DNA of 32,717 bases. It comes from Candidatus Omnitrophota bacterium (GTDB taxonomy: Bacteria > Omnitrophota > Gorgyraeia > Zapsychrales > Fredricksoniimonadaceae). A program made the translations under genes and the position numbers. This document shows, piece by piece, positions 2,507 through 5,527 of this stretch; the first letter of the stretch is position 1, and each line of letters starts with the position of its first letter. A model generated the notes under the pieces. It saw only the letters and a program-made list of their open reading frames with translations, made no database searches and was not told the origin of the DNA. The stretch spans positions 1 through 32,717 of the forward strand of contig JAHFGE010000005.1 in assembly GCA_023247575.1 (NCBI GenBank), written 5' to 3'.

Positions 2507-3655
2507 ATGTCCATCCCGGAAATGATCCAAAAACTGTCCTGTGGTGCCACCGAAATCATTCATAGCGATGATTTAGCCAAAAAGCTGGCTCTTAAGCGTC
2601 CGTTGGTTGTTAAGGCTGGTTTCGATCCCACCGCACCGGATATTCACTTAGGGCATGTGGTTTTGCTTAAGAAAATGCGGCAATTTCAAGACTTTGGTCA
2701 CAAAGTTGTCTTTTTAATTGGAGACTTTACGGCCCAGGTCGGAGACCCCTCCGGCCGCAATGAATTACGCAAGAGAATGTCGCCCCAGGAGATTGAACAA
2801 AACGCCAAAACCTATAAGGCCCAAGTTTTTAAAATTTTAGATTCCCAAAAAATCGAAGTCGTTTTCAACAGCCATTGGTTAAATAAGCTTAGCCCTCAGG
2901 ACCTGCTCGAGCTAAGCGCTCATTTGACCGTAGCCCAAATGCTGGCCCGCGCCGATTTCAAGAAACGTTTTGAATCCGGACGGGAAATTAGTTTATTGGA
3001 ATTCATTTATCCGCTTTTGCAGGGGTATGATTCCGTGCACTTGAAAGCCGACGTGGAATTAGGCGGCACTGATCAGAAGTTTAATTTACTGATGGGCCGT
3101 CAATTGCAGGAAAGTTATGGACAGCCGCCACAGGTGGTTGTGATGACACCGTTACTGGAAGGTACTGACGGAGTGCAGAAGATGAGCAAGTCGCTGGGCA
3201 ATGATATCGGCATTAATGAAGCGCCCAATGAGATCTTTGGCAAGGTCATGTCCATCAGCGATGAATTGATGTTTCGTTATTATGAACTTTTGACTGATAT
3301 GGATTTGGCCGTAGTGAAAAAGCTCCATCCTAAAGAAGCAAAGCTGCAGTTAGCCCAGGCTATGGTGGAAATGTTCCACACAAAAGCCCAAGGGCCAAAG
3401 GCACGCGAACATTTTGAACACACCTTCAGCCAGCATCAACTGCCGCAGGACATTCCTGAATATCAAATCCATCCCGGCCAAAAATTGCCGGACATTCTCA
3501 TGGCAGCCAAAGTGGTGCTTTCCAAGAATGATGCCCGCCGCTTGCTTCAAGAGAAGGCCATCACCTTTCAGGATACAGTCCTTATGGATGAACACTGGTT
3601 TCCTCAGCCAGGCATCCTCAAAATCGGCAAACGCCGTTTTTTGCGATTAAAATAA
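2507..3655 (+). CDS. tyrS: Tyrosine--tRNA ligase
   Basis: GFDPTAPDIHLGH (HIGH), YPLLQGYD, ELGGTDQKFN, KMSKS and a C-terminal S4-like tail ending IGKRRF. Confidence 0.97.
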   Translation: MSIPEMIQKLSCGATEIIHSDDLAKKLALKRPLVVKAGFDPTAPDIHLGHVVLLKKMRQFQDFGHKVVFLIGDFTAQVGDPSGRNELRKRMSPQEIEQNAKTYKAQVFKILDSQKIEVVFNSHWLNKLSPQDLLELSAHLTVAQMLARADFKKRFESGREISLLEFIYPLLQGYDSVHLKADVELGGTDQKFNLLMGRQLQESYGQPPQVVVMTPLLEGTDGVQKMSKSLGNDIGINEAPNEIFGKVMSISDELMFRYYELLTDMDLAVVKKLHPKEAKLQLAQAMVEMFHTKAQGPKAREHFEHTFSQHQLPQDIPEYQIHPGQKLPDILMAAKVVLSKNDARRLLQEKAITFQDTVLMDEHWFPQPGILKIGKRRFLRLK

Positions 3656-3677
3656 AATTAAAAGTTAAAATTATTTC

Positions 3678-3706
3678 TTGACATTATTTTTGGTGACGCA
3701 TATACT
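3678..3706 (+). promoter_or_regulatory. Strong sigma70 promoter for the tRNA-Thr-rpmG-secE-nusG cluster
   Basis: TTGACA 3678-3683, 17-bp spacer, TATACT 3701-3706; A/T-rich UP-like tract immediately upstream. Confidence 0.8.
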
Positions 3707-3759
3707 TCTGGTTCATTTAAAAAGGCTGCAGGCGGCCTAAAGCTTGTGGGAAAGCAAAA

Positions 3760-3814
3760 TTGAATACATTCATTACACTCAGTATTCAACCCTGAGTGTA
3801 ATCGAAGGGTTGAA
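3760..3814. repeat. Double-hairpin element, copy 2 (tRNA-Thr leader)
   Basis: ttgaa-tac-attcattacactca-gta-ttcaa-ccct-gagtgtaatcga-aggg-ttgaa; ttgaa at 3760-3764 and 3810-3814, ttcaa at 3785-3789. Confidence 0.85.
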
Positions 3815-3819
3815 CCACT

Positions 3820-3892
3820 GCCCCTGTAGCTCAGTTGGTAGAGCACGTCCTTGGTAAGGACGAGGCCAGCGGTTCAATCCCGCTCGGGGGCT
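3820..3892 (+). tRNA. tRNA-Thr(GGT)
   Basis: Cloverleaf: acceptor gcccctg/cgggggc, D arm gctc/gagc, anticodon arm cgtcc-ttGGTaa-ggacg, T arm agcgg-ttcaatc-ccgct; CCA not encoded. Confidence 0.96.
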
Positions 3893-3918
3893 TAAGGCTT
3901 AAAAAATCTCTTCTGTGA

Positions 3919-3941
3919 CTCCGCCACGATGTATGGCGGAG
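3919..3941. repeat. Hairpin between tRNA-Thr and rpmG (CCGCC/GGCGG family)
   Basis: ctccgcca-cgatgta-tggcggag, 8-bp stem, followed by gagcgcgaa rather than a U-tract. Confidence 0.6.
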
Positions 3942-3964
3942 GAGCGCGAAAGTTAAGAAACGTT

Positions 3965-4117
3965 ATGCGCGAGACAATTCATTTTCAGTGCACCGAGTGT
4001 CATCGTATCAATTATAACAGTACTAAAGATAAAAGAAAAAATCCGGAACGTCTGGAATTAAAAAAATTCTGTCCGTTTTGCCGTAAACACACCATCCACA
4101 AAGAGACGAAGAAGTGA
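3965..4117 (+). CDS. rpmG: 50S ribosomal protein L33 (Zn-ribbon, C+ type)
   Basis: [12 protein letters not shown]...NY...[19 protein letters not shown]; start moved from 3929 to ATG 3965 to match family length (50 aa). Confidence 0.95.
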
Positions 4118-4144
4118 AGGCCTTAAAATAACGCAGGAGTTCAT

Positions 4145-4218
4145 AGGCCTGTAGCTCCAATTGGTAGAGCGACGGTCTCCAAAACCGTGCGTTGCAGGTT
4201 CGAGTCCTGCCAGGCCTG
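4145..4218 (+). tRNA. tRNA-Trp(CCA)
   Basis: Acceptor aggcctg/caggcct, anticodon arm acggt-ctCCAaa-accgt, T arm gcagg-ttcgagt-cctgc; usual position between rpmG and secE; 3' CCA not encoded. Confidence 0.96.
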
Positions 4219-4275
4219 TTAATGAGATCCAAACTTATGGAGCGAAACGAACATAAGTTTGGAGAGCGAATTAAC
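4218..4275. repeat. Nested hairpin with GAGCGAA loop directly after tRNA-Trp
   Basis: Inner 12-bp stem tccaaacttatg (4228-4239)/cataagtttgga (4252-4263), loop gagcgaaacgaa; outer stem gttaat (4218-4223)/attaac (4270-4275). Confidence 0.75.
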
Positions 4276-4301
4276 CCCGCCAACTGCGGGATATTCATTA
4301 C

Positions 4302-4487
4302 ATGATTACTAAAGTTCAAAATTTTATTGGAGAAGTGCTAGCGGAGATGAAAAAAGTCTCCTGGGTCACCCGTCAAGACCTGATTGATTCGGCATTAATT
4401 GTGGTGGTCAGTTCTCTATTATTAGGTTTGTTTTTAGCCGTCGTCGACTTTGTTCTTTCCAAAGGTATCGCCCATTTAATAAGGTAA
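4302..4487 (+). CDS. secE: Preprotein translocase subunit SecE
   Basis: 61 aa, EMKKVSW motif followed by one hydrophobic segment; upstream of nusG. Confidence 0.95.
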   Translation: MITKVQNFIGEVLAEMKKVSWVTRQDLIDSALIVVVSSLLLGLFLAVVDFVLSKGIAHLIR

Positions 4488-4494
4488 AGAATTT

Positions 4495-4568
4495 ATGACC
4501 CATTCGACTTCGCTCAGGGTCATCCTGAGCGAACAACGAATAAATTAAGGAAGTGAGTCGAAGGATGA
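4495..4568. repeat. Double-hairpin element, copy 3 (overlaps nusG start)
   Basis: atgaccc-attcgacttcgctca-gggtcat (4495-4523), then tcatcct (4520-4526) pairing with aggatga (4562-4568) around an expanded loop gagcgaa...gagtcga. Confidence 0.8.
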
Positions 4569-5089
4569 AATGGTATGTTGTGCATACACAAACAGGTGCG
4601 GAGGAAAGGGCCAGGGCAGGCTTGGAAAGTCGTATGGCTACAACGCCCTTAAAGCAATACGTGCAAGAAGTTGTTGTCCCAACGGAGCAGGTTTCTGAGG
4701 TGCGCGGTGGGAAAAAACGGATCACCACCCGTAAGTTTTTTCCGGGGTATCTTTTAATTAAGATGGAGATGAATAAAGAAAGCTGGTATCTGGTCAAGAC
4801 CACTCCGGGGATTACTGGTTTTATCGGTCCAGGGCGTCAGCCTCAACCCCTGACGGATGCAGAGGTCGACAATATCTTGAAGCGTACGGAAGAGACGGGT
4901 ACAAAGCCTTCTCCTAAGATTGTGTTCGAAGTAGGAGAGGCTGTTCGTATCGCGCAAGGGCCATTTGCGAATTTTAGCGGTTCGGTCATGGAAGTGTATC
5001 CTGAACGTGGAAAATTAAAGGTTAGCGTATCGATTTTCGGTCGTTCGACGCTGGTTGAACTGGAGTATTGGCAGGTAGAAAAAATTTAA
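4565..5089 (+). CDS. nusG: Transcription termination/antitermination factor NusG
   Basis: KWYVVHT, FFPGYLL, TPGITGF, KOW domain GPFANFSG, IFGRST. ATG 4565 preferred; in-frame GTG 4553 is the alternative. Confidence 0.96.
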   Translation: MKWYVVHTQTGAEERARAGLESRMATTPLKQYVQEVVVPTEQVSEVRGGKKRITTRKFFPGYLLIKMEMNKESWYLVKTTPGITGFIGPGRQPQPLTDAEVDNILKRTEETGTKPSPKIVFEVGEAVRIAQGPFANFSGSVMEVYPERGKLKVSVSIFGRSTLVELEYWQVEKI

Positions 5090-5101
5090 GGAAGAATTAA
5101 T

Positions 5102-5527
5102 ATGGCTAAAGAAGTTGTCGCTCAAATCAAACTTTATGTTCCTGCTGGTCAAGCAAATCCAGCTCCTCCGGTTGGCCCTGCTTTAGGTCAACATGGGGTG
5201 AATATCATGATGTTCTGCAAAGCTTTTAATGATAAAACCAAAGGCAAAGAGGCTCTACCTTTACCGGTTATTATCTCCGTTTACAAGGACAAATCTTTTG
5301 ATTTTGTGATTAAAACTCCGCCGAGTTCAGCTCTTATCAAGAAGGCAGCCAAACTGGCCAAAGCCTCTGGTACTGCGGGTAAGGAAGTTATTGGATCATT
5401 GACGATGAAACAGGTGGAAGAAATTGCCAAAATGAAAATGGATGATTTAAACACGGTTGATAGGCAGCAGGCGATAGCCACTATTGCTGGAACAGCCCGT
5501 AGTATGGGAATTGAAATAAAGGGATAA
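5102..5527 (+). CDS. rplK: 50S ribosomal protein L11
   Basis: [27 protein letters not shown]. Confidence 0.98.

Follow-up and report, generated by a model that had tools for sequence, protein, structure and literature searches.

The DNA examined here (hereafter, the window) is a 32,717-nt stretch corresponding to contig C164 of G000, a draft genome of a Candidatus Omnitrophota bacterium (1.50 Mb, 166 contigs, 44% G+C, 87% complete), and it carries a recent 70-nt insertion at the start codon of nusG, directly behind secE. The inserted element consists of two inverted hairpin modules of a repeat superfamily with the outline TGAGCGA...GTCGAA, adds a net 70 nt, and belongs to a low-copy subfamily that lies almost exclusively on start codons. 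The insertion, at the ATGA of nusG, is best read as the arrival of a small, gene-less palindromic selfish element, similar to the interspersed repetitive units of mycobacteria (MIRUs), that nests at start codons and brings a built-in restart cassette; we consider this reading likely. It appears to be tolerated, and is probably near-neutral, ahead of an essential gene. On this evidence, selfish DNA can enter an essential gene at its most sensitive positions while the cell survives, given that the insert rebuilds the start codon, halts the stray reading frame and offers a ribosome-binding-like motif.

A recent insertion at the nusG start codon

The junction between secE and nusG contains the following features, including coding sequences (CDSs), Shine–Dalgarno-like (SD-like) motifs and a small open reading frame (mini-ORF).

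4302–4487 (+): secE CDS from the ORF list, stop TAA at 4485–4487 (NCBIfam TIGR00964 SecE, 61.5 bits)
4481–4484 (+): ancestral SD-like AAGG in the last secE codons, 14 nt before the old start ATG 4495
between 4487 and 4565: secE–nusG spacer, 77 nt
4495–4498 (+): 5' copy of the ATGA direct repeat, formed by the ancestral start codon of nusG and the following A; in relatives, ATGA occurs only once at this junction
4495–4564 (+): inserted DNA, 70 nt (equally 4499–4568, the boundary being ambiguous owing to the 4-nt repeat)
4495–4548 (+): mini-ORF of 17 codons (peptide MTHSTSLRVILSEQRIN), stop TAA at 4546–4548, using the ancestral SD and ATG
4495–4523 (−): left module, a short hairpin unit with core TGAGCGAAGTCGAA (4503–4516) and flanks ATGACCC / GGGTCAT
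4510–4532 (+): central hairpin, 4510–4518 with 4524–4532, loop GUCAU; dominant predicted RNA and DNA fold
4520–4568 (+): right module, a long unit TCATCC-TGAGCGAA...GAGTCGAA-GGATGA in which the new ATG lies together with the mini-ORF stop and SD-like motif
4546–4554 (+): SD-like TAAGGAAGT, overlapping the mini-ORF stop within a 23-nt internal loop
4556–4564 (+): 3' arm of the outer helix in the minimum-free-energy structure, pairing with 4500–4509 and ending just before the ATG
4565–5089 (+): nusG CDS, start ATG 4565 = 3' ATGA copy (4565–4568)

Compared to related genomes, the secE–nusG spacer of the window is strongly expanded. The distance from the secE stop to the nusG ATG is 1–14 nt in 24 of the 26 relatives that have both genes, against 77 nt here, and the remaining two relatives have spacers of 84 and 114 nt, unrelated in sequence. 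In five same-genus genomes, the secE stop (TAA, TAG or TGA) is followed by a spacer of 6–8 nt (AACATTT, AAATGTT, AAATTT, AATTTAT or GAAATTTT) and then by ATGAAATGG. The window reads TAA AGAATTT ATGA (66 nt) ATGA AATGG at this position, which is the predicted ancestral junction (...TAA AGAATTT ATGAAATGG) plus 70 nt. An independent empty site is provided by a 13.7-kb contig of run X2, which comes from another study; it joins 4493 directly to 4565, omitting 4494–4564 (71 nt), and differs from the window at nine positions over 4302–4493 (192 nt) and at 12 positions over 4565–4850 (286 nt). A population that is ~95% identical at the locus has the empty site, and the insertion is real and recent. 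Among the relatives searched, it is private to G000.

These comparisons bear out a preliminary description of the window, made from its sequence alone, which had proposed that a 70-nt insertion duplicated the nusG ATGA and had anticipated the ancestral junction: the spacer is short in 24 of 26 relatives and free of the element in all 26, and the empty-site contig agrees. That description had considered both GTG 4553 and ATG 4565 as the start of nusG, and the protein comparisons decide for ATG 4565. Among 30 relatives, 27 yielded a NusG; the alignment begins at residue 1 (MKWYVVHT...) in 24 of these and at residue 2 in two, the remaining match being partial. The NCBIfam profile TIGR00922 (216.5 bits; residues 3–174 on profile positions 1–172) supports the same start. 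For the annotation of metagenome-assembled genomes, this matters since such inserts cause starts to be miscalled, mini-ORFs to be listed spuriously and spacers to look falsely long.

The ancestral signals are still recognizable upstream of the insert. The AAGG in the last secE codons has counterparts in same-genus relatives, which show the same AGG-TAA/TGA layout ahead of nusG, and its position at −14 from the old start lies in the tail of the SD-like distribution of this genome. The insert itself has the structure of a miniature inverted-repeat transposable element, with inverted arms (CCATTCGACTTCGCTCAGG and CCTGAGCGAA...GTCGAAGG), a duplicated ATGA, a length of 70 nt and the 17-codon frame as its sole ORF. 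By inspection, the locus is a single unit. A consensus scan for promoters and terminators found neither a sigma-70-like site nor a terminator-like T run inside 4495–4568.

Copies on other start codons and a proposed restart cassette

A search of 150 same-order genomes with the element as query (positions 1–74) returned six full-length matches (85–91% identity) in four genomes of genus g33, which belongs to another family, and one further match (query positions 13–74) in a third family of the same order. Within the family of g33, the subfamily occurs in 4 of 45 genomes with 1–3 copies each. Scanning a metagenome collection with a pattern from the element centre alone gave 12 loci. After the removal of duplicates (L186, L188 and L192, equal to L175; L191 and L197, equal to L179; L196, equal to L178), of the fragment L200, and of L202, a second handle of the L199 locus, the non-redundant set comprised 15 loci in 13 different genes.

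All 15 loci start with ATGA, immediately followed by the conserved left arm, and 14 of them end with ...GTCGAA(G/C)G ATGA, where the 3' ATG opens an ORF of 113–501 aa or one that runs off the locus. Six of the encoded proteins, RfbB (dTDP-glucose dehydratase), HemL, a LeuB-type dehydrogenase, GyrB, GatA and TrpS, align with their NCBIfam models from model positions 1–4 at residues 1–13. Because these six and NusG are aligned from the model start, the 3' ATGs represent the natural N-termini of seven proteins. As a baseline, this genome contains 16,691 ATGA sites; an ORF of 100 aa or more begins at only 17% of them, and only 3.2% provide the first start in their frame; at the generous 17% rate, the binomial probability of 14/15 is 2e-10, with the proviso that the loci are not fully independent. 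Mobility is confirmed by a second series of empty and filled sites, at gatC-gatA: five relatives of genome G099 have the usual stop/start overlap (empty), whereas G099 reads ...TAATGA, the element, and then ATGAAATTG.

The AT-rich middle of the right module, which differs by eye from the four long copies in this genome at 10 of 15 bases, was considered as a local adaptation to nusG, and this is ruled out by near-identical middles at other genes in other genomes. No gene-carrying copy of the subfamily was seen among the 15 loci, and a transposase partner was not systematically sought.

The copies share a common internal layout. In all ten simple copies (69–74 nt, window copy included), the 5' ATG opens a 17-codon ORF encoding MTHSTTLRVILSKRRIK or a close variant. 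Its stop is TGA in eight copies and TAA in two, so the stop is kept even though the base differs, and it overlaps GAGGAG, AAGGAG or AAGGAAG. The distance from the stop to the rebuilt ATG is 15 nt in the simple copies, except for 16 nt at nusG and 11 nt in L178. Four composite copies have extra modules nested inside, and their ORF still ends before the gene start, 35–96 nt upstream. Since 70 is not divisible by three, ribosomes coming from the old ATG would, without this stop, read across the gene start in the wrong frame; in the window, nusG and the mini-ORF from ATG 4495 lie in different frames. The SD-like motif and the ATG both lie within the repeat in 14/15 copies, as is known for the ribosome-binding site (RBS) as well as the ATG of Neisseria REP2.

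Based on this layout, two routes would keep nusG translated. Ribosomes leaving secE, or binding the old SD, would translate the 17-codon mini-ORF and melt the hairpin, terminate at TAA 4546–4548, and re-initiate at ATG 4565, 16 nt downstream; the mini-ORF itself would inherit the ancestral coupling to secE. Alternatively, ribosomes would enter directly at the exposed SD-like loop. We rank termination-reinitiation as the most likely route and direct loop binding as the second, given the long spacing of the SD-like motif at nusG. Efficient coupling at small positive spacings, with both unfolding and scanning models, is described in the available portion of PMC12548453. Since nusG would be translatable via these restart routes, we infer that the insertion is nearly neutral and that nusG probably stays translated. 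The element copies represent a natural test set for termination-reinitiation.

Predicted folding and alternative explanations

The region 4480–4600 is predicted to fold with a minimum free energy of −29.9 kcal/mol (z −2.5; 0 of 200 shuffles fold as well). The best fold is one long interrupted hairpin, with a central stem (4510–4518/4524–4532) and an outer stem (4500–4509/4556–4564). In the ensemble, the central hairpin has a probability of ~1 (pairs 0.73–1.0), and its arms are perfect over 10 nt in an inverted-repeat search; the outer helix (4503–4508 with 4557–4562) reaches 0.80–0.99. Across four flank lengths, the SD-like motif is 84–88% unpaired, and ATG 4565, directly 3' of the outer helix, is 67–97% unpaired.

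The preliminary description had placed the nusG start codon in a stem and the SD-like motif in its loop, and its sequence observations are accurate. TCATCCT (4520–4526) is complementary to AGGATGA (4562–4568), which includes ATG 4565; the enclosed segment starts with GAGCGAA (4527–4533), ends with GAGTCGA (4555–4561) and contains TAAGGA (4546–4551); and translation from the first ATG at 4495 gives the 17-codon, out-of-frame ORF ending at TAA 4546–4548. The structural interpretation is not supported by folding. When the region was refolded, the central hairpin dominated and the 7-bp pairing was not favoured, so that the proposed start-codon stem is not predicted at equilibrium either here or in eight other element copies, which share the same central hairpin with both 7-bp helices at ~0. 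The proposed alternative pairing is likewise present as complementarity (ATGACCC at 4495–4501 with GGGTCAT at 4517–4523) and absent as a predicted structure: in the ensemble, over the same four flank lengths, the helices 4520–4526/4562–4568 and 4495–4501/4517–4523 each have a probability of 0.0, and forcing either one gives −20.0 kcal/mol, a penalty of ~10 kcal/mol. A 6-nt-seed search over 1.6 kb returned 52 inverted pairs, with the TCATCCT/AGGATGA pair outside the 25 longest. The 7-bp complement alone is therefore within chance, and its significance rests on recurrence among element copies; TCATCC...GGATGA closure is found in 13/15 copies of the element elsewhere.

The same description had suggested that the host domesticated the element, possibly as a two-state translational switch, in which the middle strand frees the ATG when paired to the left and hides it when paired to the right, with the state set by translation of secE or of the mini-ORF. 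Both 7-bp pairings do exist in the sequence, and in a model in which 4483–4512 is made unavailable, mimicking a ribosome that sits on the first ATG, the ATG-covering right-hand helix (4520–4526/4562–4568) becomes the predicted best fold; this is the only setting in which it does so. Not only are both helices absent from the ensemble in all nine copies folded, but the insertion is missing from 26/26 relatives with both genes and from the ~95%-identical strain, showing that it has not been retained over time. All of the seemingly designed features (stop, SD-like motif and ATG) are subfamily properties that are common to copies ahead of unrelated genes, and no Rfam family matches: searching 3500–5300 with E up to 10 returned two tRNAs plus chance-level matches only. 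Domestication and the switch are not supported, and we regard the latter as quite improbable. A structured cis-regulatory RNA (riboswitch- or thermosensor-like) was rejected on the same grounds, i.e., absence in 26/26 relatives, no Rfam family and alternative helices at ~0.

The element might instead act mainly on the RNA itself, where it would affect processing or stability (e.g., through an RNase III cut or 3'-end protection) and thereby uncouple the fates of the secE and nusG mRNAs, any effect on translation being secondary. The strength of the hairpin (−29.9 kcal/mol, with no shuffle as stable) fits this idea, and paired repetitive extragenic palindromic (REP) units are discussed as endoribonuclease targets in the available portion of PMC3733652. 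Nevertheless, it leaves the conserved in-frame stop and the exact ATG placement in 14/15 copies unexplained, and a terminator-like T run and a promoter-like site are both absent within 4495–4568. We therefore consider this explanation unlikely. An element that nests at start codons with its own restart cassette accounts for these features.

Several observations weigh against that interpretation or limit it. None of the Logan contigs of run X1, the best-holding run and likely source, spans the element; they break in the repeat, so that the window's own junction rests on assembly. Together with the 166-contig state of the draft genome, this would allow for an assembly artefact, in which a repeat-induced chimera placed 70 nt of dispersed repeat between secE and nusG. 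We judge such a chimera to be highly improbable, given that the insert is base-exact between two ATGA copies with both genes intact, that independent assemblies show the same architecture ahead of 12 other genes, and that run X1 contains 0.81 of the sampled words of a 601-nt stretch. No RNA dataset was listed as containing the stretch, and in the metatranscriptome run X3, nothing matched it. The nusG SD-like AAGG starts at −18 from ATG 4565, compared to a genome mode of −11/−10 for SD-like tetramers, and direct initiation may be weak given this long spacing. This genome has one subfamily copy only, whose AT-rich right-module middle is unique there. The 15 loci include two pairs of orthologous genes, and a single genus and similar habitats account for most of the copies. 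The exceptional locus, L193, has AGG where its orthologue L194 has the rebuilt ATG. Finally, the start-codon association could reflect purifying selection on random ATGA insertions and not targeting.

With regard to the exception, the metagenome contigs of L193 and L194 have the element at the start of the same gene, and the L193 gene may be losing its start following insertion.

Module superfamily, related systems and neighbouring sequences

The modules that compose the element form a large superfamily. In each, a short stem that varies from copy to copy closes a conserved 'loop', which is either TGAGCGAAGTCGAA or, in long modules, TGAGCGA...GAGTCGAA. The exact 14-mer core TGAGCGAAGTCGAA has 19 copies in the genome, and when one mismatch is allowed, there are 34 copies, compared to 0–12 in each of 30 relatives. 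Similarly, GAGCGAAGTCGAA occurs 19 times and CCTGAGCGAA 18 times vs ~2 expected, whereas the heptamer GAGCGAA by itself shows no enrichment (160 occurrences vs 156 expected). Among 56 short and 54 long (TGAGCGA..GAGTCGAA) modules, the three core-adjacent pairs are Watson-Crick in 80–89% of cases vs 36–49% with permuted partners, and two pair types alternate per position. Modules are arranged singly, as inverted dimers, mutually nested, or inside GTAG-headed palindromes. Their orientation bias towards gene starts is weak (13/134 sense vs 6/156 antisense within 30 nt of a plausible start); these counts rest on crude ORF calls and were excluded from the evidence. The superfamily reaches far beyond this lineage: in a species-representative collection, an estimated 32,000 stored stretches contain the 18-mer CCTGAGCGAAGTCGAAGG, compared to ~17 chance matches at uniform base composition, and among the 125 matches listed are Acidobacteriota, Bacteroidota, Alphaproteobacteria, Patescibacteria, Chloroflexota, Verrucomicrobiota, cyanobacteria, Planctomycetota and others.

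The GTAG-headed palindrome (GTAGAGACGAGGCA ... TGCCTCGTCTCTAC) has 31 matches in the genome (e.g., C48:1584, C59:7060 and C98:2500), and in 15 fully seen copies its loop is a family module, TGG-TGAGCGTAGTCGAA-CCA, one repeat being nested in another.

Small GIY-YIG genes were examined as candidate mobilisers. This genome has five, all adjoining tRNA genes and one with family-like modules upstream. In five other subfamily-bearing genomes, modules lie within 250 nt upstream of 4/21 small GIY-YIG genes and downstream of none, so the genes do not appear to be bracketed by them, which would differ from the NTS/SRM system. The module superfamily is thus loosely tied to a GIY-YIG element clade, and the nusG subfamily is not tied to one. 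The genome's single Y1-transposase-like gene (C126, ~1770–2430; PF01797, E 2.4e-15) was rejected as a RAYT-type partner, having on either side short direct repeats of the TTCCGGGGA type, which are unrelated to the hairpin modules.

Some loci show modules and GIY-YIG genes side by side. The tRNA-glmU gap of G061 contains modules plus an intact 92-aa GIY-YIG gene (cf. L161–L166 and L214). In this genome, the corresponding gap (C6, ~2660–2776) consists of ~110 nt of modules ending in GGATG, whose ATG starts glmU, making this a second start-codon case here; in six same-genus relatives, the gap is only 5–11 nt. L212 (G146:C64) and L213 (G099:C56) have a small GIY-YIG gene (MWFLYILRC...) with modules upstream, after a duplicated tRNA 5' half, and a complete tRNA copy downstream, an arrangement that looks like an element that invaded a tRNA gene.

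We tentatively propose, as a possibility to which we assign a lower probability than to its rejection, that the nusG-type subfamily is a 'translational hitch-hiker' homing to ATGA start codons with an evolved stop-SD-ATG cassette, derived from and moved in trans by tRNA-invading mini GIY-YIG elements, whose 5' leaders consist of the same hairpin modules, and that start-codon nesting is a recurrent and convergent niche of selfish DNA across bacterial phyla and no mycobacterial oddity. If a nuclease partner were confirmed, it would point to a start-codon-directed DNA integration activity; if the hitch-hiker reading were true, essential single-copy genes (nusG, gyrB, trpS and gatA) would have been colonised at almost no cost.

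Comparisons with known repeat systems refer here to the available portions of the cited papers. MIRUs are the closest counterpart; they are described as mobile, as inserting at start codons and as containing a coupled ORF (PMC12548453), and they have tetranucleotide direct repeats at filled sites, empty sites being known (Delihas 2011, PMC3184786). Like them, the element is short (MIRU-like range 40–100 bp), apparently mobile, flanked by tetranucleotide repeats and located at start codons or operon junctions, exactly so at nusG and in 14/15 loci; ATGA is the flank, and empty sites are seen in 24/26 relatives, in the X2 contig and in the gatC-gatA series. Both have a small ORF thought to hand ribosomes on, with host expression little disturbed. 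However, the internal ORF of MIRUs is described as ending in a −4 overlap, whereas in the element the stop lies 11–16 nt upstream, with an SD-like motif behind it. The element is also a dimer of hairpin modules from a superfamily of many phyla, a comparison made by MIRU descriptions only; it is single-copy per site, in contrast to MIRU tandem arrays, and its host is an uncultured groundwater bacterium. The MIRU strategy of mycobacteria would, in a different layout, also operate in a distant lineage that is uncultured.

Neisseria REP2 and the Borrelia inverted repeat (IR) have a promoter, RBS and ATG fused to ORFs (Delihas 2011, PMC3184786). They resemble the element in being dispersed, directly upstream of genes, with internal inverted repeats and a supplied RBS and fused ATG. 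REP2 differs in carrying a promoter, whereas the consensus scan found no promoter-like site in the nusG element, and a duplicated start codon with a mini-ORF is not among the REP2 features described in the portion available, by which description the two are set apart.

NTS/SRM repeats (Chenal et al. 2025, PMC11893778) are, similarly to the modules, hairpins of 20–50 nt found in many phyla; pan-bacterial variants of the module family have the outline GTCAT-stem-loop-stem-AT, and some small GIY-YIG genes have related modules in their 5' leader. The element has conserved loops of 14–37 nt and short, variable stems, and does not fit the SRM pattern: the published pattern has no match on either strand of 4441–4620, and its 19 matches genome-wide (vs 1–6 in five Markov simulations) are all away from the nusG locus. 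For SsnA, cleavage of single-stranded DNA is described at a site that lies a few nucleotides upstream of the hairpin, and the available part of PMC11893778 reports no transposition for Ssn, a further difference from the element. A separate repeat family in this genome, TGTCATTCCCGCGAAAGCGGGAATCCAG and variants, is nearly identical to the Neisseria NTS consensus of the same paper; its 12-mer TGTCATTCCCGC has 18 matches.

REP/REPIN-RAYT systems (PMC3733652, PMC3116915) share small palindromes and inverted dimers that fold apart or as one hairpin; some REPs abut or enter coding regions, and REP termini are reported to give neighbouring ORFs stop codons. The element ends without a GTAG or CGTC tag, and its conserved part is the long loop, whereas CGTC REPs have 8–9 bp stems with 4–5 nt loops. 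Rickettsia palindromic elements (RPEs, PMC10969869) are palindromes tolerated in or at essential genes, with the product spared by design, as at nusG. RPEs are in frame and add a peptide, whereas the nusG copy lies outside the reading frame and leaves NusG unchanged. Beyond REPs near ORF N-termini, the available parts of Di Nocera et al. 2013 (PMC3733652) and PMC10969869 do not mention start-codon nesting, and a motif-string and keyword search of the openly readable literature found no description of the element, with MIRU and REP2 as the nearest concepts.

The wider neighbourhood has the order tyrS, tRNA-Thr, rpmG, tRNA-Trp, secE and nusG, followed by rplK, rplA, rplJ and rplL. The SD-like motif of the element at nusG, TAAGGAAG, also lies ahead of rplK, at 5088–5095.

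2507–3655: tyrS
3820–3892: tRNA-Thr
3929–4117: rpmG
4144–4219: tRNA-Trp

Further modules are present in the window. One with an 8-bp stem and core TGAGTGTAATCGAA at 3793 (3770–3815) is directly 5' of tRNA-Thr, and a two-module family copy lies at ~660–720, with an exact core at 702–715. Between tRNA-Trp and secE, a perfect 12-bp hairpin (TCCAAACTTATG / CATAAGTTTGGA, loop GAGCGAAACGAA) is located at 4228–4263. In the X2 contig (~95% identical), the tRNA-Trp 3' end is followed at once by ATGATT, the secE start; because that contig lacks the spacer, the tRNA-Trp–secE spacer of the window (4220–4301, 82 nt) has also been expanded here.

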